A DNA stretch of 36,398 bases from a virus (lineage: Duplodnaviria; Heunggongvirae; Uroviricota; Caudoviricetes): IMG/VR virus record IMGVR_UViG_2537562173_000010, one strand, 5' to 3'. Below are positions 1,703 through 36,080 of the stretch, piece by piece. The translations under genes were made by a program, and so were the position numbers. Within the stretch, counting starts at the first letter, position 1, and the number at the start of each line of letters is the position of its first letter. Below the pieces are notes generated by a model. The model saw nothing but the letters and a program-made list of their open reading frames with translations. It ran no database searches and had not been told where the DNA came from.

Positions 1703-3064
1703 ATGTTTAAACCGGAACTCCTTTCCCCGGCGGGAACGCTGAAAAATATGCGTTACGCTTTCGCTTATGGCGCAGATGCTGTTTATGCGGGCCAGCCGCG
1801 TTACTCCCTGCGTGTACGCAACAACGAATTCAACCACGAAAATCTTCAGCTCGGCATCAATGAAGCCCACGCGCTGGGGAAAAAGTTTTATGTCGTGGTC
1901 AACATTGCACCGCACAACGCCAAGCTGAAAACCTTTATCCGTGACCTGAAACCGGTGGTGGAAATGGGGCCGGATGCGCTGATTATGTCCGATCCAGGGC
2001 TGATTATGCTGGTGCGTGAACACTTCCCGGAAATGCCAATCCACCTCTCGGTACAGGCTAACGCCGTAAACTGGGCGACGGTGAAATTCTGGCAGCAAAT
2101 GGGTCTGACCCGCGTGATCCTCTCTCGCGAACTGTCACTGGAAGAGATTGAAGAGATCCGCAATCAGGTGCCGGATATGGAGATCGAAATCTTCGTTCAC
2201 GGCGCGCTGTGCATGGCCTACTCCGGTCGCTGCCTGCTCTCTGGCTATATCAACAAGCGCGACCCGAACCAGGGCACCTGCACCAACGCCTGCCGCTGGG
2301 AGTACAATGTCCAGGAAGGGAAAGAAGATGACGTCGGCAACATCGTACACAAGTACGAGCCGATTCCGGTGCAAAATGTTGAGCCGACGCTGGGTATCGG
2401 CGCGCCAACCGACAAAGTGTTTATGATCGAAGAAGCCCAGCGTCCGGGCGAGTATATGACCGCGTTTGAAGATGAGCACGGCACTTACATCATGAACTCG
2501 AAAGATCTGCGCGCCATCGCCCATGTTGAACGCCTGACCAAAATGGGCGTGCATTCGCTGAAAATCGAAGGCCGTACCAAATCTTTCTACTATTGCGCAC
2601 GCACCGCGCAGGTTTACCGTAAAGCTATCGATGACGCCGCTGCGGGCAAACCGTTCGATACCAGCCTGCTGGAAACGCTGGAAGGTCTGGCGCATCGTGG
2701 CTATACCGAAGGTTTCCTGCGTCGTCATACCCACGACGATTATCAGAACTACGAATACGGTTATTCGGTTTCTGACCGCCAGCAGTTTGTTGGTGAGTTT
2801 ACCGGTGAGCGCAAGGGGGAGCTCGCGGCGGTAGCGGTGAAAAATAAATTCTCCGTTGGCGACAGCCTTGAGCTGATGACGCCGCAAGGCAACATTAACT
2901 TTACCCTTGAGCATATGGAAAACGCCAAAGGTGAAGCGATGCCGGTCGCACCAGGCGATGGTTATACTGTGTGGCTCCCGGTGCCGCAGGATCTTGAGCT
3001 AAATTACGCGCTGCTGATGCGTAATTTCTCCGGGGAAACCACGCGTAACCCCCACGGTAAGTGA
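1703..3064 (+). CDS. yegQ: peptidase U32-family protein YegQ (TrhP-type tRNA hydroxylation protein)
   Basis: 453-aa ORF whose translation I recognise as E. coli YegQ. ATG at 1703 preceded by a purine-rich RBS-like stretch. Confidence 0.85.
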   Translation: MFKPELLSPAGTLKNMRYAFAYGADAVYAGQPRYSLRVRNNEFNHENLQLGINEAHALGKKFYVVVNIAPHNAKLKTFIRDLKPVVEMGPDALIMSDPGLIMLVREHFPEMPIHLSVQANAVNWATVKFWQQMGLTRVILSRELSLEEIEEIRNQVPDMEIEIFVHGALCMAYSGRCLLSGYINKRDPNQGTCTNACRWEYNVQEGKEDDVGNIVHKYEPIPVQNVEPTLGIGAPTDKVFMIEEAQRPGEYMTAFEDEHGTYIMNSKDLRAIAHVERLTKMGVHSLKIEGRTKSFYYCARTAQVYRKAIDDAAAGKPFDTSLLETLEGLAHRGYTEGFLRRHTHDDYQNYEYGYSVSDRQQFVGEFTGERKGELAAVAVKNKFSVGDSLELMTPQGNINFTLEHMENAKGEAMPVAPGDGYTVWLPVPQDLELNYALLMRNFSGETTRNPHGK

Positions 3065-3148
3065 TTAATTTCGATTATTTTTCCCGGATGGAAAATTCTT
3101 AGAAACCGATCACATACAGCTGCATTTATTAAGGTTATCATCCGTTTC

Positions 3149-3235
3149 GCTGAAAAACATAACCCATAAAATGCTAGCTGTACCAGGAACCACCTCCTTA
3201 GCCTGTGTAATCTCCCTTACGCAGGCTTATTTTTT
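3149..3235 (+). ncRNA. cyaR: CyaR (RyeE) Hfq-dependent small RNA
   Basis: Sequence GCTGAAAAACATAACCCATAAAATGCTAGCTGTACCAGGAACCACCTCCTTAGCCTGTGTAATCTCCCTTAC...GGCTTATTTTTT matches my recollection of E. coli cyaR. It ends in a hairpin (GCCTGTGTAA / TTACGCAGGC) followed by a T-run, and its 3' end overlaps attL. Confidence 0.8.
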
Positions 3236-3236
3236 A
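3209..3236. repeat. attL core (28-bp direct repeat, left prophage boundary)
   Basis: AATCTCCCTTACGCAGGCTTATTTTTTA at 3209-3236 recurs as AATCTCCCTTACACGGGCTTATTTTTTA at 35726-35753 (26/28 identical). The right copy matches the P2 attP core as I remember it. Confidence 0.75.
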
Positions 3237-3296
3237 CGCGTAACACAATGAAATAAAAGGATTTATTTCTGGTCACGTCCACACATTGACCACATC

Positions 3297-3324
3297 GACA
3301 AAAAAGCCCCTCGACTGAGGGGCT
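3297..3324 (-). terminator. rho-independent terminator downstream of ogr
   Basis: 8-bp perfect stem AGCCCCTC / GAGGGGCT (3305-3312 / 3317-3324) followed on the minus strand by a T-run (A-run 3299-3305 on plus). Confidence 0.6.
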
Positions 3325-3336
3325 TCCTGTTTGTAA

Positions 3337-3555
3337 TTACATCCACATAATTTGCTGCCCTGACGGCAACGGGTGCGGTCTTACGGCGTGGACTTCTCCC
3401 GGCTTCACGATGTATCGCTGTACCGACTCATAAGTGATGAATGTGGCGCTGCAATTCACGTTCTGACACTGGTGATAACGCTCTTTTGTCGTGTCAGTGA
3501 TATAGCGGCTTGTACGCGCATGTGCGGCATGCTGGCATAAAGGACAATGAAACAT
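3337..3555 (-). CDS. ogr: late transcription activator Ogr (zinc-finger)
   Basis: 72 aa from the internal Met (MFHCPLCQHAAHARTSRYITDTTKERYHQCQNVNCSATF...), with the Cys4 zinc-finger pattern and P2 Ogr length. The longer 93-aa ORF-track start is rejected. Confidence 0.9.
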   Translation of the reverse strand: MFHCPLCQHAAHARTSRYITDTTKERYHQCQNVNCSATFITYESVQRYIVKPGEVHAVRPHPLPSGQQIMWM

Positions 3556-10064: not shown

Positions 10065-10120
10065 TGTCCTGATTTGTACTCACTCATTTTCCGCCTGACA
10101 ATTTACATAGCCCAAATGCT

Positions 10121-10144
10121 ATCAAACCTGACAGTCTGCTTTGA
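10121..10144 (+). repeat. site A: 23-bp near-palindromic repeat on the left flank of the cargo cassette
   Basis: ATCAAACCTGACAGTCTGCTTTGA; 21/23 identical to site B at 12431-12454 in direct orientation. Internally an imperfect palindrome (TCAAAC...CTTTGA). Confidence 0.65.
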
Positions 10145-10271
10145 GCGAAAAGTGGACATTAGAGTTACAAAAGCAAGTTTAAATCATCCAAAATATTACA
10201 ATGTCCTTATCTATCTGATATCGTTATGATAAAAAGCTCCTGAATATAATCGATAGTAGGTGGTTATTTCC

Positions 10272-10649
10272 ATGAAATCAATTTTAGAGGTCTTTACTCA
10301 AGGAAATACTAAAGAAAAACTGGCTGTTATCGCCGATCTCACAACCATTGCGGGAATATCGATTGCAACTATTATTGCTGGTTTGTTAACCCTAGTTGCA
10401 AAAACAGATAAACTAGATGTTGGAAATCTGTTTGGAGTTGTCATAATATCTCTGCTCGGATTGGCTGGTGTTTGCTGTTTTGTGGCCTTATTTATTTGGG
10501 TTATAACCCAAATGTCTAAACCATGGGGAACACCTCGGGGGGTTCAGCCCTTAGTTAAGTGTGCTATTTCCCTTATCTTTATCTGTATGTTTTTGCTGGC
10601 TGTCTTTACATTTTATGAGTTTATTTCTTCGATGAGCATACGCTATTGA
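10272..10649 (+). CDS. small integral membrane protein (about 125 aa, 3-4 predicted TM helices)
   Basis: ATG at 10272 with AGGTGG RBS 9 nt upstream (the ORF track starts at GTG 10260). Highly hydrophobic, AT-rich, in the Z/fun position and oriented opposite to the tail genes. Confidence 0.55.
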   Translation: MKSILEVFTQGNTKEKLAVIADLTTIAGISIATIIAGLLTLVAKTDKLDVGNLFGVVIISLLGLAGVCCFVALFIWVITQMSKPWGTPRGVQPLVKCAISLIFICMFLLAVFTFYEFISSMSIRY

Positions 10650-10671
10650 ATATAAAATCAGCCCCCATAAC

Positions 10672-11256
10672 TTAAAAGAGACCTTCTATATCGACTTCAA
10701 TGCCCAAATAACGGACTGTGCTTTCCAGTTTCTTATGGCCCAACAGAAGTTGGATCACCCGGAGACTCTTGGTTTTCTTGTAGATTAAGTAAGGTTTTGT
10801 TCTTCTCATGGAATGTGTGCTGTACAGCGAATCTTCGAGACCAAGCTTTTCTACCCACCCATGAAAAATTCGGTTGTATTGCCGGGTTGATATATGGTGG
10901 GTAGTTCCGACCCGAGAGCGGAACAGGAAGCCTTTACTATGCCAGTTGCCGAGCTTTATCAATGCAGTAACCGCTTCCCTTGTCCCTTTGGTTATCTCAA
11001 ATTGGACAGGGCTGCCGGTTTTCTGTTGCAACACCGTTGCTCTGCTTGAGACAGAACTGCCATATGCAGCATCTGATACTTTGAGTTTGACCAAATCACA
11101 GCCCCGTAGCTTAGTGTCCAAAGCCATGTTGAACAGAGCTAGATCGCGTGTTTTACCTTCCAACTCAAGTCTAATCCGGATCCCCCAGATATGAAATATC
11201 TGAAGTGGCCTTTTTTGACCGATGGTACGGTCTTTATTCCACGGTGACGTTTTCAT
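10672..11256 (-). CDS. small tyrosine recombinase, FimB/FimE-like (catalytic domain only, about 194 aa)
   Basis: Tyrosine-recombinase boxes: TKLRGCDLVKLKVSD (box I Arg), HSMRRT (H-x-x-R), LLGHKKLESTVRYLGIE (catalytic RY). No N-terminal core-binding domain. Start taken at internal Met MKTSPWNK with GGAG RBS; the ORF track's 228-aa extension is rejected. Confidence 0.75.
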   Translation of the reverse strand: MKTSPWNKDRTIGQKRPLQIFHIWGIRIRLELEGKTRDLALFNMALDTKLRGCDLVKLKVSDAAYGSSVSSRATVLQQKTGSPVQFEITKGTREAVTALIKLGNWHSKGFLFRSRVGTTHHISTRQYNRIFHGWVEKLGLEDSLYSTHSMRRTKPYLIYKKTKSLRVIQLLLGHKKLESTVRYLGIEVDIEGLF

Positions 11257-11362
11257 ATTCAAATCTCCTGCAATGTGGGAGATTTGAGTATGGTTGTCTC
11301 TCAAGAGCGAAAATAAGTCAACTATCACTAGTTGTTGCGCATGTACGTATTCTGTCAATTAA

Positions 11363-12205
11363 TTATTGACAATCATCAATTCTGGAATGATCAAAATCAT
11401 CATATCGAATTATAGTCTGGTTGACTGTATCTATTGTTGGTGTCATTTCTGTTATAATATCCTGATAACCTAAAGAGTTAAATACATTTACTAAGGCCTC
11501 ACACCGAAGGGCCGTAGCAATTACAAAATTATAAATTGCCAGCCGTTTATTTTCTTGTTTAACTGCAAGAATGAATTCGATAGCAGTATTTTCATCACTT
11601 TGGATTGCATTATATAGAGATACTATATTTACCATATCATCAGAGAATGTATGTATTGAATCACAAAGGGGAACGTAATGGGCATGATAGTGTGTTTCCC
11701 AGCCAATTAATTCAAAAAGTCTTCTGGTTCCTGGATATTCAGGTGTATTTGGCCACAATCTATTAAATAGATCAGTTAGTTCTTTTCCCATGCGAATCCT
11801 TTCATTTGCTGCTGGATTAGTCATTCCTTTGGATTTTAAACACTCCAGCCACCGTTTTCCATTACTATGAACTAATTTCTTACTAGCCTTGAGTAATGCT
11901 TGTGCATTTTCGCCATCATCTATTGCTATATAAAATTGATTGGCAGCCTGTTCTATTATAACCCTAGCTAATACTTCCGATGCTGAAAAGGCTCCTATAT
12001 TCAAAGAAGAGATAGCCTGATTACTAAGTTCATTCAGTACATTAAAGTACTGTAAGACCATCAATTTTTGTTCCACACCCTTTAGGTTGTCTATTTTATT
12101 TTTATGCTCCTCAAATTTTGCATGGATATATTTATTTATCGCGGCTATTTTTTTTACATCTTCGTCAAGATCAAACGGGCAACGTCCAAACAATTCTTTT
12201 TTCAT
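11363..12205 (-). CDS. hypothetical protein (280 aa), AT-rich cargo
   Basis: ORF with strong RBS (AGGAGA 6 nt upstream of the ATG). Very AT-rich. No P-loop or nuclease motif I recognise. Co-oriented with and 106 bp upstream of the recombinase gene. Confidence 0.65.
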   Translation of the reverse strand: MKKELFGRCPFDLDEDVKKIAAINKYIHAKFEEHKNKIDNLKGVEQKLMVLQYFNVLNELSNQAISSLNIGAFSASEVLARVIIEQAANQFYIAIDDGENAQALLKASKKLVHSNGKRWLECLKSKGMTNPAANERIRMGKELTDLFNRLWPNTPEYPGTRRLFELIGWETHYHAHYVPLCDSIHTFSDDMVNIVSLYNAIQSDENTAIEFILAVKQENKRLAIYNFVIATALRCEALVNVFNSLGYQDIITEMTPTIDTVNQTIIRYDDFDHSRIDDCQ

Positions 12206-12430
12206 ATATTTCTCCTGTTGTACAAGCTTCCATAAGTTGGCAGATTATACACTGAAGATTACCTATAAATAGCTGTGCGGGATAGCAGATCAGTGCAAGA
12301 AGTACAACCAAGTGAACTGTGCGTATTCAGATACCTGGCCTAACGTTCGCGATAGCCGTCCCCTGCACGAAGCCATATATTAGATGTATTAGCTCAGACC
12401 TTATCTGACAGGTTGAGTAGGTAGAATCTA

Positions 12431-12454
12431 ATCAAAGCTGACAGTCTGGTTTGG
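12431..12454 (+). repeat. site B: 23-bp near-palindromic repeat on the right flank of the cargo cassette
   Basis: ATCAAAGCTGACAGTCTGGTTTGG; shares the exact core CTGACAGTCTG with site A in direct orientation. Confidence 0.65.
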
Positions 12455-12626: not shown

Positions 12627-13154
12627 TTATTGCGGCATTTCCGGCCATTCAGGATTTGCAGGATCCACACGGCTGACCAGAACACTGTAGCGTTCCCATG
12701 CTTCCAGTCGGCTACGCTCCTCATCTGTTGCCATATTCAGTCTGACAGAGCGTTCCAGTGGCTGAATGATAGTTTCAGCTTCGGAAAGCAAAGCTGACTT
12801 CTGTAATTCCGCCAGTTGCAGCTGTTCGTCTGCCGTATAAATCCGCTTAATCACGGCACCATCCTTAAACATCCATTTACCTGAGTCATCAGCACGTCGG
12901 TTGGCGGTAATATCAGGAACCTCGACAACGCTAAAACCTTCAGGGTTGAGCGTTGAAGCATCTCTGGTGATGCCGACAATTATATTATTCTCATCGTAAA
13001 CAATCTTTATCGTGTCTTCCTGAAAATTACTTACTTCCTCATACCAGTTTTTTCCCTCTTCGGACCATAACCAGATAACATCAAAATTTTTTGTCAGTTG
13101 ATATTGGGCAACAGTTTTTGGATTACCCGCAGTAATATTTTTTAAATGCTGCAT
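12627..13154 (-). CDS. G: tail fibre assembly protein G
   Basis: 175 aa, the P2 gpG length, immediately downstream of H. Confidence 0.85.
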
Positions 13155-27323: not shown

Positions 27324-27875
27324 ATGGAACTTAGATTAAAAAATGTTACCAGTTATAAGAAAGACGCCTTCACAATACTGAATCTTGAAAAAAGAGTAAA
27401 CATACTATACGGCCAAAATGGTTGTGGCAAATCTACCATTTCAAATTATTTCTACGACTCTACACACACAGATTATAACGAGTGTGAATGTACCCTTCTT
27501 GACAATTACAAACCTCTTGTTTACAACACTAAATTTATTGAAGATAACTTCTATAATGCACAGGAACAAAAAGGTGTTTTTACATTAAGTAAAGAAAATG
27601 CAGATATTGAAAAACAATTAATTGAAAAAGAAGCAATTAAACAGCAACTCACAGAGCAATATAGACAAAAAAAAGGAGTGTTATTGAAATTAGAAGCAGA
27701 AATGGAAAAAAAAGAAAATGAATACATCGAATCGATCTGGAAAAAAACAGAACCAATCAGAAACTCTGTACTAAAAACCTTAATGAAAGGTAAAGTTGGC
27801 TATAAAAGACCTTTTTTTGAGATGATAAAATCATCCTCACCAATCACCTTTATTAATTTAAATGATATATATTAA
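27324..27875 (+). CDS. N-terminal fragment (183 aa) of a split Rad50/SMC-like ABC ATPase
   Basis: Walker A GQNGCGKST (codons 30-38, 27411-27437), then coiled-coil-like K/E-rich sequence. GAGG RBS 7 nt upstream of the ATG. Ends ...SPITFINLNDIY* inside the 19-bp duplication. AT-rich. Confidence 0.7.
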   Translation: MELRLKNVTSYKKDAFTILNLEKRVNILYGQNGCGKSTISNYFYDSTHTDYNECECTLLDNYKPLVYNTKFIEDNFYNAQEQKGVFTLSKENADIEKQLIEKEAIKQQLTEQYRQKKGVLLKLEAEMEKKENEYIESIWKKTEPIRNSVLKTLMKGKVGYKRPFFEMIKSSSPITFINLNDIY

Positions 27876-27889
27876 TTTAAATGATATAG
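27852..27889 (+). repeat. exact 19-bp tandem duplication at the junction of the two ATPase ORFs
   Basis: ATTAATTTAAATGATATAT (27852-27870) followed by ATTAATTTAAATGATATAG (27871-27889), 18/19 identical. Removing one unit fuses the two ORFs in frame (...SPITF-INLNDIAKEY...). Confidence 0.85.
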
Positions 27890-29559
27890 CAAAAGAATAC
27901 TCTATACTATTAGAAAATAGAAACAATGAAACCGCATTAATAACTCCTTTACATCCATATACCCCATCAATTGATGATGTAAATACATTAGCAACACCTA
28001 TAATAGATACAAGCAATAGCTATTTATCAGAAACCATTAATAAACTTCATAATCTTGACTGGGTAAAAAAAGGTAAAGAACATTATTTAGACGGTTCTAC
28101 ATGTCCGTTTTGTCAGGAAAAAACTATTAGTCACGAATTTTTAAATGCCCTTAAATCAATATTTGACGAAAGTTATTCAAAGAAAGTAAAACAGCTCTCA
28201 GATATAAAGTCAGTTTATGAGAAAAATACCATATATCATTTTAACGAAATACAAAACAATATATCATCATGTGCACTAATCAATGAGAAAGATAAAGAGA
28301 ACATTATTTCCAATATTAAAATATTGCAAAACATTGCAGAAAAAAATTTAATAAACATTATTGATAAGATCAACAATCCATCAACATGCGTTACATTAGA
28401 AATTGATAAAGAACTAGAAAATCATGTTCAGGAAAGCATAGGCGCTGTTAACAAGAAAATAAGAGACATAAATGATAAGGTTAAAAAACTCAAAGAGTAT
28501 GAGAATAAAATCGGAAAACAAGTTTGGGGGGCTCTCCATGCTTTTTGCAGCGATGATTTAGAGAATTTATCCAAACACAAAGAAAAATTCTTTGATATCA
28601 AAAAGAAAGTTCATGATGAATTAAATAATATTGAGCAACAAGGAAAAGAAAATAATCTCACAATAAAAGCATTGCGAGATAAAATATCTAACATTGATTC
28701 TACGATAGACTCAATAAACACCCATTTAAAAAATCTAGGGATCTCTGGTTTTTGTATTGAAAAACATGCAGAAAGAAAAGATATGTACATTATATCTCGA
28801 CCAGGGCATACAAAAAACCAAAATGTTTATAGATCTCTTAGCGAAGGTGAAAAAACACTAATAACGTTTCTTTATTTTTTAGAGTGCTGTAAAGGTAAAA
28901 CCGATAAAAATGATACCGATAGCAGGGATATTTTTATTGTTATTGACGATCCAATATCTAGTCTATCGCAAAACTATGTCTACGACATCGCATCAATTAT
29001 TCATCACCACATTATAAAAAATGAATTAACAAAGAAGGTATTAATCCTTACTCACAATCTTTATTTCTTTCATGAACTTATTAAGCTATCTCCTAAAAGC
29101 AGAGAAGACAAACTATTTAAGAAAAACTATTATCTAGGTAGAGTAACGAAAAATGATTTTAGTATAATTACTGAAATACAAAAAAACAGCATACAGAATG
29201 AATATCAATCTTTGTGGCAAATATTAAAAGATGCAAAAGATGGCAAAGCAAACAAAATCATAATACCGAATATTATGAGAAACATACTAGAATATTATTT
29301 TGCATTTGTTCATAGAACAGATGCTCTACAAGATGAATTAACAAAGTTGGCACGCGACGATAGCAACAGTGATTTCAAAGCATTCTACAGATACATTAAC
29401 AGAGGTTCTCACTCTGATGCGGTAAATATTACTGATATGGGCGACATAGACCCAGATAAATACCTAAAACAATTGAGAACAATATTTTCAGCTACTGGTG
29501 ACGAAATGCATTATTTAAAAATGATGGACGAACTAGAAGAGGAAAACGTTACCGCTTAG
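27862..29559 (+). CDS. C-terminal fragment (565 aa) of the split Rad50/SMC-like ABC ATPase, with a possible HEPN-like C-terminal domain
   Basis: CPFC (28102-28113) within the coiled-coil region; ABC signature-like LSEGEK; Walker B DIFIVIDDP with D-loop SSLS; H-loop LILTHN. The C-terminal 170 aa contain R-x3-E (RNILE) and RYINRGSH. AT-rich. Confidence 0.7.
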   Translation: MIYINLNDIAKEYSILLENRNNETALITPLHPYTPSIDDVNTLATPIIDTSNSYLSETINKLHNLDWVKKGKEHYLDGSTCPFCQEKTISHEFLNALKSIFDESYSKKVKQLSDIKSVYEKNTIYHFNEIQNNISSCALINEKDKENIISNIKILQNIAEKNLINIIDKINNPSTCVTLEIDKELENHVQESIGAVNKKIRDINDKVKKLKEYENKIGKQVWGALHAFCSDDLENLSKHKEKFFDIKKKVHDELNNIEQQGKENNLTIKALRDKISNIDSTIDSINTHLKNLGISGFCIEKHAERKDMYIISRPGHTKNQNVYRSLSEGEKTLITFLYFLECCKGKTDKNDTDSRDIFIVIDDPISSLSQNYVYDIASIIHHHIIKNELTKKVLILTHNLYFFHELIKLSPKSREDKLFKKNYYLGRVTKNDFSIITEIQKNSIQNEYQSLWQILKDAKDGKANKIIIPNIMRNILEYYFAFVHRTDALQDELTKLARDDSNSDFKAFYRYINRGSHSDAVNITDMGDIDPDKYLKQLRTIFSATGDEMHYLKMMDELEEENVTA

Positions 29560-34632: not shown

Positions 34633-35646
34633 ATGGCAATCAAAAAACTCGATGATGGTCGATATGAAGTGGACATCCGCCCTACTGGACGTAACGGAAA
34701 ACGCATCCGTAGGAAGTTTGATAAGAAAAGCGAAGCTGTCGCTTTCGAAAAATACACGTTGTACAACCACCACAATAAAGAATGGCTATCAAAACCAACA
34801 GACAAACGACGTCTGTCGGAACTGACACAGATCTGGTGGGATTTAAAGGGTAAACACGAAGAGCATGGGAAATCTAATCTTGGAAAAATTGAAATCTTCA
34901 CAAAAATAACGAATGACCCATGCGCATTTCAAATCACGAAATCCCTTATCAGCCAGTACTGCGCCACCCGAAGAAGCCAGGGTATTAAACCTTCGAGTAT
35001 CAATCGTGATTTAACATGTATTAGCGGCATGTTTACAGCCCTGATTGAAGCGGAGTTATTCTTTGGTGAGCACCCTATCAGAGGGACAAAGAGGCTTAAG
35101 GAGGAAAAACCAGAAACAGGCTATCTCACACAGGAAGAAATTGCCTTACTGCTTGCAGCACTTGACGGCGACAATAAAAAGATTGCGATTCTTTGCCTGA
35201 GTACAGGAGCACGTTGGGGAGAAGCAGCTCGTTTGAAAGCAGAAAATATCATCCATAACCGCGTCACGTTTGTTAAAACGAAAACAAACAAACCACGCAC
35301 CGTCCCGATTTCAGAGGCTGTTGCCAAAATGATCGCGGATAACAAACGAGGTTTTTTATTCCCTGATGCTGATTACCCTCGCTTCAGACGAACAATGAAA
35401 GCAATAAAACCGGATTTGCCAATGGGGCAAGCCACACATGCACTAAGGCACAGCTTTGCCACTCATTTCATGATTAATGGAGGAAGTATTATCACGCTAC
35501 AACGGATACTAGGTCACACGCGGATTGAGCAAACTATGGTTTACGCTCATTTTGCGCCAGAGTACCTTCAGGACGCCATTTCTCTTAATCCGCTAAGAGG
35601 TGGTACTGAGGCCGAGAGTGTCCACACAGTGTCCACAGTAGAGTAA
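34633..35646 (+). CDS. int: integrase (tyrosine recombinase)
   Basis: 337 aa (MAIKKLDDGRYEVDIRPTG...) with HALRHSFATHF and LGHTRIEQTMVYAH boxes; P2 Int length; adjacent to attR. Confidence 0.9.
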   Translation: MAIKKLDDGRYEVDIRPTGRNGKRIRRKFDKKSEAVAFEKYTLYNHHNKEWLSKPTDKRRLSELTQIWWDLKGKHEEHGKSNLGKIEIFTKITNDPCAFQITKSLISQYCATRRSQGIKPSSINRDLTCISGMFTALIEAELFFGEHPIRGTKRLKEEKPETGYLTQEEIALLLAALDGDNKKIAILCLSTGARWGEAARLKAENIIHNRVTFVKTKTNKPRTVPISEAVAKMIADNKRGFLFPDADYPRFRRTMKAIKPDLPMGQATHALRHSFATHFMINGGSIITLQRILGHTRIEQTMVYAHFAPEYLQDAISLNPLRGGTEAESVHTVSTVE

Positions 35647-35725: not shown

Positions 35726-35753
35726 AATCTCCCTTACACGGGCTTATTTTTTA
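35726..35753. repeat. attR core (28-bp direct repeat, right prophage boundary)
   Basis: AATCTCCCTTACACGGGCTTATTTTTTA; its reverse complement matches the P2 attP core AAAAAATAAGCCCGTGTAAGGGAGATT as I recall it. Confidence 0.75.
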
Positions 35754-36080
35754 TGCATAAGCCCTATCCCTGGTCACCGTCTTCCATTGACCACATCGAT
35801 AGAATCCTCCTTCATAGCACGATGCTTTTCACTTATCGACATCGTGCTCGCACAGGTTCCGGTTACGCACAGCCAGAACGCGCATGTTTGACGCTTACCA
35901 AAAAATGAACCTAAAGCATTGGAACATTTTTGACATCATTTTCTGATGGCTGCATAAAATAAAAATTCTGCTTTAGTTTCATCTATCTGTTTGTCATTAT
36001 TACTCACATTCAATAATGGTGTTGAAGAATATCCCATCACAGATAAAATAAATATGTGCATGGTAGTCTTGAATCTATTC

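Follow-up and report, generated by a model that had tools for sequence, protein, structure and literature searches.

P2 prophage at the 3′ end of cyaR

The window, that is the whole stretch of 36,398 nucleotides analysed here (IMG/VR record IMGVR_UViG_2537562173_000010), contains at positions 3209–35753 what is, by its sequence, a P2 prophage of 32.5 kb in the 3′ end of the small RNA gene cyaR. The 5′ 62–67 nt of cyaR in this lysogen appear to be host DNA, and the 3′ end, from about 3214–3220 onwards, appears to be supplied by the prophage. We consider the account as a whole, P2 at locI, in the 3′ end of cyaR, with a variant 3′ terminator arm brought by the phage, to be highly probable. The genes, the cyaR terminator and the two recombined cores are located as follows.

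1703–3064 (+): yegQ (trhP), host gene 5′ of cyaR; open reading frame, annotated in UTI89, K-12 and APEC O1
3147–3235 (+): cyaR (ryeE) sRNA gene; Rfam RF00112 to 3232, end of the T-run at 3235
3201–3226 (+): CyaR intrinsic terminator hairpin, by folding; terminator scan match at 3200–3227
3209–3236 (+): attL core; the P2 27-bp core corresponds to 3209–3235, variant bases G3221 and A3223
3337–3555 (−): ogr, late-gene activator and first prophage gene; P2 ogr CDS at 829–1047 of the P2 locus L001, Pfam Ogr_Delta 2e-21
34633–35646 (+): int, P2 integrase (tyrosine recombinase); Pfam Int_N and Phage_integrase, 337/337 residues identical to P2 Int
35726–35753 (+): attR core, canonical; equal to P2 attP and to the majority attB of E. 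coli
36081–36398 (−): yegR, host gene 3′ of the site; open reading frame, annotated yegR, no Pfam family

RF00112 (CyaR/RyeE) is the sole Rfam family that scores above its gathering threshold in the whole window. The match, at 3147–3232 on the + strand, covers model positions 1–85 of 85 with 100.2 bits against a threshold of 47 (E 4.7e-19), which upholds the assignment to cyaR made in an earlier sequence-only reading of this DNA. The gene order, with yegQ ending at 3064 and cyaR starting at 3147, is that of UTI89, K-12, APEC O1 and Escherichia sp. E1V33.

The 28-mer AATCTCCCTTACGCAGGCTTATTTTTTA lies at 3209–3236, and a second copy at 35726–35753 is identical to it at 26 of 28 positions. The two copies differ at 3221 (G in attL, A in attR) and at 3223 (A in attL, G in attR). 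No further copy with up to three mismatches is present in the window, none of 100 shuffles matched the repeat, and the number of such pairs expected by chance is about 3e-5. The core shares 24 nt with cyaR when counted to the end of the Rfam match and 27 nt when counted to the end of the T-run; it takes in the last 2 nt of the terminator 5′ arm, the loop, the entire 3′ arm and the T-run. The P2 record AF063097 places its 27-bp attP core on exactly the repeated bases, with 27 of 27 positions identical in attR and 25 of 27 in attL. The sequence-only reading had proposed that the repeats are a P2-family att core, that the attR copy departs from attL at two positions, and that the core overlaps the last 27 nt or so of cyaR, including the 3′ half of the terminator and the T-run; our coordinates agree with all of this.

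When the two host flanks are joined, they give the yegQ–cyaR–yegR empty site, and alignment with prophage-free strains bears out the insertion point: 700 of 700 positions are identical in UTI89, IHE3034, NU14 and others (UTI89 and at least 24 other genomes, with 882 genomes holding at least 80% of the sequence). Against the window itself, E. coli DSM 30083 / ATCC 11775 is identical at 701 of 701 positions. We give a negligible probability to the view that the repeats are due to chance or to an assembly artefact and that cyaR is mis-assigned. It conflicts with the Rfam score of 100 bits, with the rarity of such a repeat by chance and in shuffles, with the exact match to the annotated P2 attP core and with the successful reconstruction of the empty site.

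The prophage begins on the left with ogr, followed by gene D, and ends on the right with int, which is transcribed toward the repeat and whose stop codon lies 79 nt from the attR core. Joining the int-side and ogr-side arms rebuilds an attP region that matches P2 at 98.0% over 800 nt in one ungapped piece; at this junction the prophage is nearer to Peduovirus P24C9 and phage 10W (99.1%) than to P2. The Int-arm, IHF and Cox regions of AF063097 transfer to the window without indels and are putative binding sites here.

3234–3267: putative IHF-binding region of the ogr-side arm, by P2 position; L001 726–759, within the ungapped 800-nt match
3271–3298: putative Int arm-type binding site, ogr side ("P arm" in the P2 record); L001 763–790, identical to P2
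3303–3326 (−): Rho-independent terminator of ogr and the F operon; P2 annotation at L001 795–818, terminator scan at 3304–3325
35612–35638: putative Int arm-type sites, int side, with GTGTCCACA repeats ("P′ arm" in the P2 record); L001 587–613, identical to P2
35636–35709: putative Cox-binding region (Cox being the excision directionality factor); L001 611–684, identical to P2

The likeness to P2 attP and locI thus extends to the integrase, the position of the 27-bp core, the Int-arm and Cox regions and the yegQ–yegR site. The IHF region is homologous, but six substitutions separate it from that of P2, all within its first 15 nt, just past the core. The other difference is in the core itself, where attL of the window reads ACGCAGG, two bases apart from the ACACGGG of P2 and E. 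coli.

Recurrent use of the site

The cyaR 3′ end is locI, the preferred chromosomal site of P2. The junction of cyaR, P2 arm and ogr is present in 1126 of 5426 complete E. coli genomes, and the recurrent use of the site by P2 that had been supposed from the sequence is thereby confirmed. The same reading had placed the insertion where K-12 carries its cryptic P2 remnant (ogrK/yegZ). This proved correct: K-12 has, at the same point and in the same orientation, cyaR, core, P2 arm, ogrK, D′ and yegR, with 97.5% identity to the window from yegQ through ogr into D. It differs in that only ogrK and about 210 nt of D are left and in that its attL core is canonical; the deletion ends within the old attR core. 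Barreiro and Haggard-Ljungquist reportedly described this remnant at locI in 1992.

The CyaR terminator in the lysogen

The terminator consists of the 5′ arm GCCTGTGTAA (3201–3210), the loop TCTCCC (3211–3216) and the 3′ arm TTACGCAGGC (3217–3226), followed by the T-run that ends at 3235. The predicted fold is an 11-bp stem with a 6-nt loop and a UUAUUUUUU tail, at −20.1 kcal/mol. The canonical E. coli sequence gives the same 11-bp hairpin at −19.8 kcal/mol, and a third allele, ACACAGG, gives −20.5 kcal/mol. Relative to the canonical hairpin, pair 4 is U-A in place of U.G, and pair 6 is U.G in place of U-A. The claim that the attL copy still pairs with the upstream arm, and that the terminator is rebuilt after integration, therefore stands as regards the predicted hairpin. 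The sRNA gene is intact after integration because attP bears a copy of the cyaR 3′ end. Judging from folding, CyaR 3′-end formation and termination, Hfq binding and stability would be unaltered in the lysogen.

The stem is free of mismatches in 47 of 48 distinct phage-supplied contexts, defined as a 3′ arm followed by a P2-type arm. We had considered that phage-supplied 3′ arms might destabilise the stem more than native ones do; this was rejected, as 111 of 116 native contexts are mismatch-free. The sole lysogen-type context with a mismatch in the stem is that of a Buttiauxella MAG, which has a C x A pair (GCCCGCGCAA/TTGCACGGGC).

On the + strand, the terminator of ogr also forms a terminator-like hairpin (scan match 3304–3325), 70 nt past the cyaR terminator. 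This hairpin could halt CyaR read-through before it enters ogr in antisense. Read-through of the CyaR terminator was 41% in a reporter (PMC9765468).

Mapping of strand exchange from natural recombinants

Alignment of five cores showed TTACACGGGC in four of them, namely window attR, P2 attP, P24C9 attP and UTI89 attB; TTACGCAGGC was found only in window attL, where it now forms the cyaR 3′ end. The arrangement in which attL would hold the canonical P2 core and attR the odd copy was discarded, since the alignment with P2, P24C9 and UTI89 gave the reverse.

Four natural recombinants carry both kinds of core. In the window, attL is variant and continues into the phage arm, and attR is canonical and continues into a flank identical to that of ST95-type relatives. 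E. coli O121 201805972 is the mirror image, with a canonical attL followed by the P2 arm and a variant attR whose flank is of the subtype that empty sites with the variant core also have. An E. albertii-type lysogen (IMG/VR 2713896897_000015) likewise has a canonical attL followed by the P2 arm, and a variant attR followed by the same relic as in the unoccupied site of the E. albertii type strain. The fourth, E. coli UTAK-6, carries a different P2-like phage. Its attL reads GTAATCT/CCCTTAC/GCAGGC and its attR AAAAACG/CCCTTAC/ACGGGC, so that CCCTTAC is the sole block common to both, with heterology on either side. Thus, in the four recombinants, bases 3221 and 3223 always move with the right-hand flank. 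Exchange would accordingly be confined to 3214–3220 for the UTAK-6 phage and to 3209–3220 for P2 Int itself, the 7-bp interval being that of a prophage with a different, non-P2 integrase.

3214–3220: CCCTTAC, inferred strand-exchange (overlap) segment, from the UTAK-6 heterologies and the three other recombinants

CCCTTAC has the size of a tyrosine-recombinase overlap region and falls within the terminator loop and the opening bases of the 3′ arm. We also considered that the variable bases might lie inside the overlap, where a heteroduplex could resolve to either outcome. This was rejected, as the block shared in UTAK-6 lies to the left of them and the four recombinants all agree. Integration into tRNA loops between symmetric stems is an analogue (PMC3448106), and the same point has been raised for hairpins in sRNA genes (PMC3603311).

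Since bases 3221 and 3223 segregate with the right flank, the phage that gave rise to the window prophage would have had a variant attP core. A P2-identical integrase would then have joined cores with two mismatches, both just beyond the exchange segment. P2 Int tolerates core mismatches.

These observations suggest the following course of integration. P2 Int, a heterobivalent tyrosine recombinase, would join attP and attB, assisted at the ogr-side arm by IHF, and strand exchange would take place in or beside the terminator loop, within CCCTTAC. The host would contribute the body of CyaR and the 5′ arm of the terminator; the 3′ arm, the U-tract and everything downstream would come from the phage, and the host 3′ arm would be displaced to attR, beside yegR. 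The incoming core would have been ACGCAGG, the form that the cyaR 3′ arm takes in Salmonella, Citrobacter and E. albertii, and the expected attP core would be AATCTCCCTTACGCAGGC.

Distribution of the core alleles and origin of the variant bases

A variant attP core was not found among GenBank phages, in which all relatives have two mismatches to it; the phage origin that we propose for G3221 and A3223 is therefore drawn from lysogens only. In IMG/VR, 32 stretches contain the variant core, mostly after the cyaR 5′ arm GCCTGCGTAA and before P2-type ogr-side arms. This 5′ arm forms a perfect Watson-Crick stem with the variant 3′ arm. In two Salmonella-type loci, a prophage ogr-side arm nearly identical to that of P2 is found together with the variant core.

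In a survey of hairpin types with one genome per species, the GCCTGCGTAA/TTACGCAGGC hairpin was present in 31 species (Citrobacter, Kosakonia, Phytobacter, Atlantibacter, Salmonella enterica diarizonae and others) and the GCCTGCGTAA/TTACGCGGGC hairpin in 18 species (Klebsiella, Enterobacter). The combination found in the window, GCCTGTGTAA/TTACGCAGGC, is the resident allele of Escherichia sp. E1V33, E. albertii, Pseudescherichia and Mangrovibacter, and in E1V33 and Pseudescherichia no prophage accompanies it. The canonical P2 3′ arm was perfectly paired only in Kluyvera (GCCCGTGTAA/TTACACGGGC). From the core comparison and this survey, cyaR of the lysogen is chimeric, with the 5′ arm of E. coli joined to a 3′ arm whose type belongs to other enterobacteria.

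Within E. coli, ACACGGG is carried by at least 4835 of 5426 genomes. ACACAGG, a single step away from either of the other two alleles, is found at empty sites in about 560 genomes, or about 10% of complete genomes. The corresponding terminator, TTACACAGGC (for instance in strains S65EC and EC20), pairs perfectly with the E. coli 5′ arm. ACGCAGG following the E. coli 5′ arm occurs in 26 of the 5426 genomes; 22 of these continue into phage DNA and 4 are prophage-free. Of the IMG/VR lysogens whose 5′ arm is that of E. coli, 85 have the canonical core, 4 the variant and 1 a T-run variant.

In the four prophage-free genomes, E. coli 2018-11-1BCC and three more, ACGCAGG stands directly on the normal flank. 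If exchange occurs to the left of 3221, Int-mediated cycles of integration and excision cannot yield these sites. They may go back to an old allele of Escherichia, or a prophage may have been lost there by recombination at short homology within GGCTTATTTTTTA, leaving a scar.

The variant-bearing empty sites bear on a different reading of the window, in which the host attB was already ACGCAGG and a canonical P2 exchanged strands to the right of the variable bases; the variant in attL would then be host DNA and the canonical core in attR phage DNA. The four genomes show that such a host site exists, and every sequenced P2-type phage has the canonical core. However, the window flanks are 99.7–100% identical to UTI89, and the ST95-type strains with the 700/700 empty site all carry the canonical core. 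Moreover, in the three other recombinants the variable bases go with the right flank, and in UTAK-6 exchange lies at 3214–3220, to the left of them. We regard a variant host site as improbable, for both the variant in attL and the canonical core in attR.

Point mutation offers another origin for the two bases: they would have arisen in attL after integration of a canonical P2 and been retained since pairing is preserved. Both changes are transitions opposite U and structurally neutral, and the intermediate allele ACACAGG exists in about a tenth of E. coli genomes. Against this, the exact pair of bases is the native cyaR 3′ arm in many Enterobacteriaceae, where it also stands beside P2-type arms, and E. 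coli lysogens whose phage arm is unrelated (UTAK-6, L018) have the same combination. Mutation would have had to strike two particular bases within 3 nt and spare the adjoining arm. This explanation appears more improbable still than a variant host site, and we infer that G3221 and A3223 arrived with the phage.

The E. coli empty site as a possible prophage relic

The similarity between the two junctions does not end with the 28-bp core. It runs on for about 70 nt, and positions 3264–3303 match 35765–35804 at 75%.

35753–35810: host flank similar to the ogr-side arm of P2; 22 of 28 positions agree in the Int arm box, and 16 nt are deleted from the IHF region

The local alignment of this flank with the arm has a score of 38, compared with a mean of 14.4 (sd 2.2) for shuffles, none of which reached 38 in 1000. 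Prophage-free UTI89 has this flank too. In Escherichia sp. E1V33, the upstream region of yegS comes immediately after cyaR, with no insert and no yegR between them. E. coli has about 970 bp extra between cyaR and yegS (UTI89, L002 1828–2796), and yegR lies inside. The right edge of this insert resembles the P2 int-side arm followed by a decayed core (CCATTGCAAGCTCCTGGTGGTAACCACTGAATCCTCCATAC and then TTTTTAT), and its end coincides with the exact break of the alignment, next to the ancestral yegS flank. For the arm and core at this edge, the pairwise score was reached by 5 of 1000 shuffles. An nhmmer profile of the int-side arm and core matched the insert edge in UTI89, K-12 and 2018-11-1BCC, with E values of 0.03–0.17 over about 220 kb searched with a small profile, and gave no match in 13 control loci. 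We also considered yegR as a phage gene and did not retain the idea: it belongs to no Pfam family, and its tblastn matches are only in "phage" records that include host flank.

The simplest reading, which is somewhat likely, perhaps fairly so, is that an ancient P2-type prophage entered cyaR in the E. coli lineage and then lost all but its arm boxes and yegR, and that the present 3′ end of E. coli cyaR is its attL. We lean, if only slightly, towards a wider proposal, that P2-family phages overwrite the 3′ half of the CyaR terminator and carry it between Enterobacteriaceae, the native E. coli end being itself phage-derived. If this is true, the alleles ACACGGG, ACACAGG and ACGCAGG record the co-evolution of phage and host at an sRNA terminator.

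Relation to known attachment sites

Insertion at the 3′ end of cyaR is already described. Archer et al. 2011 (PMC3032704, Table 2) give "cyaR RNA" as the insertion site for three elements: the P2-type prophage Wphi2 in E. coli W, ogr-D′ in K-12 and P2*B in E. coli B. Citing Wassarman et al. 2001, Bobay et al. 2013 (PMC3603311) mention E. coli ryeE as "previously known to be targeted by phages". Full-text literature searches tying cyaR to integrase or attB returned nothing relevant. The details added here, a foreign-type attL core, a 7-bp exchange window, three terminator alleles and a relic empty site, are incremental.

P2-like phages are also known in the 3′ ends of tRNA and tmRNA genes, 186 in tRNA-Ile and Fels-2 and SopE-phi in ssrA (PMC3448106), although P2-type integrases are still said there to insert "between other genes". 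The cyaR site resembles these in that attP duplicates the 3′ part of a structured RNA gene, in that exchange takes place in or beside the loop of a dyad-symmetric stem, and in that the gene is rebuilt at one junction with a dead 3′ fragment at the other. It differs in its target, which is the Rho-independent terminator of an Hfq-dependent sRNA and not a tRNA-like fold. Other sRNA genes that serve as att sites are rybB, for the P2-type Rybb* prophages (PMC3032704, Table 2), and ryeB/sdsR of Salmonella (cited in PMC3603311). There, too, temperate phages take a conserved sRNA hairpin as attB, but the sRNA, the core sequence and the integrase specificity are different.

For annotation, a prophage border may thus lie inside an sRNA gene without inactivating it, and the cyaR 3′ end of a lysogen is phage DNA. 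The P2-family exchange region could be mapped to 7 bp of a terminator loop from sequence alone. The data suggest that phages can horizontally replace sRNA terminators of enterobacteria, which is of importance wherever locI or the 3′ end of cyaR serves as a neutral marker, as a platform for integration or as a character in phylogeny.

Other features of the prophage

A single AAA_13 (PF13166) ATPase is spread over two adjacent open reading frames at 27324–29559 (+): the one of 183 aa holds the N-terminal part (profile positions 11–161 of 713) and the one of 565 aa the C-terminal part (211–713). The apparent split lies at a tandem duplication of ATTAATTTAAATGATATA (two copies), with the junction at about 27853–27890. 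The pair is probably a frameshifted cargo gene of defence type, at the position of old/tin in P2.

A second, small protein of the Phage_integrase family, 228 aa, is encoded at 10672–11358 (−). Together with the gene of a DUF5677 protein at 11363–12205 (−), it adjoins the tail-fibre assembly gene (12627–13154). Imperfect direct repeats of 49 nt, at 10095–10143 and 12405–12453, flank the small integrase and DUF5677 genes, and the region 10095–12453 could be a small inserted cassette or an inversion module.
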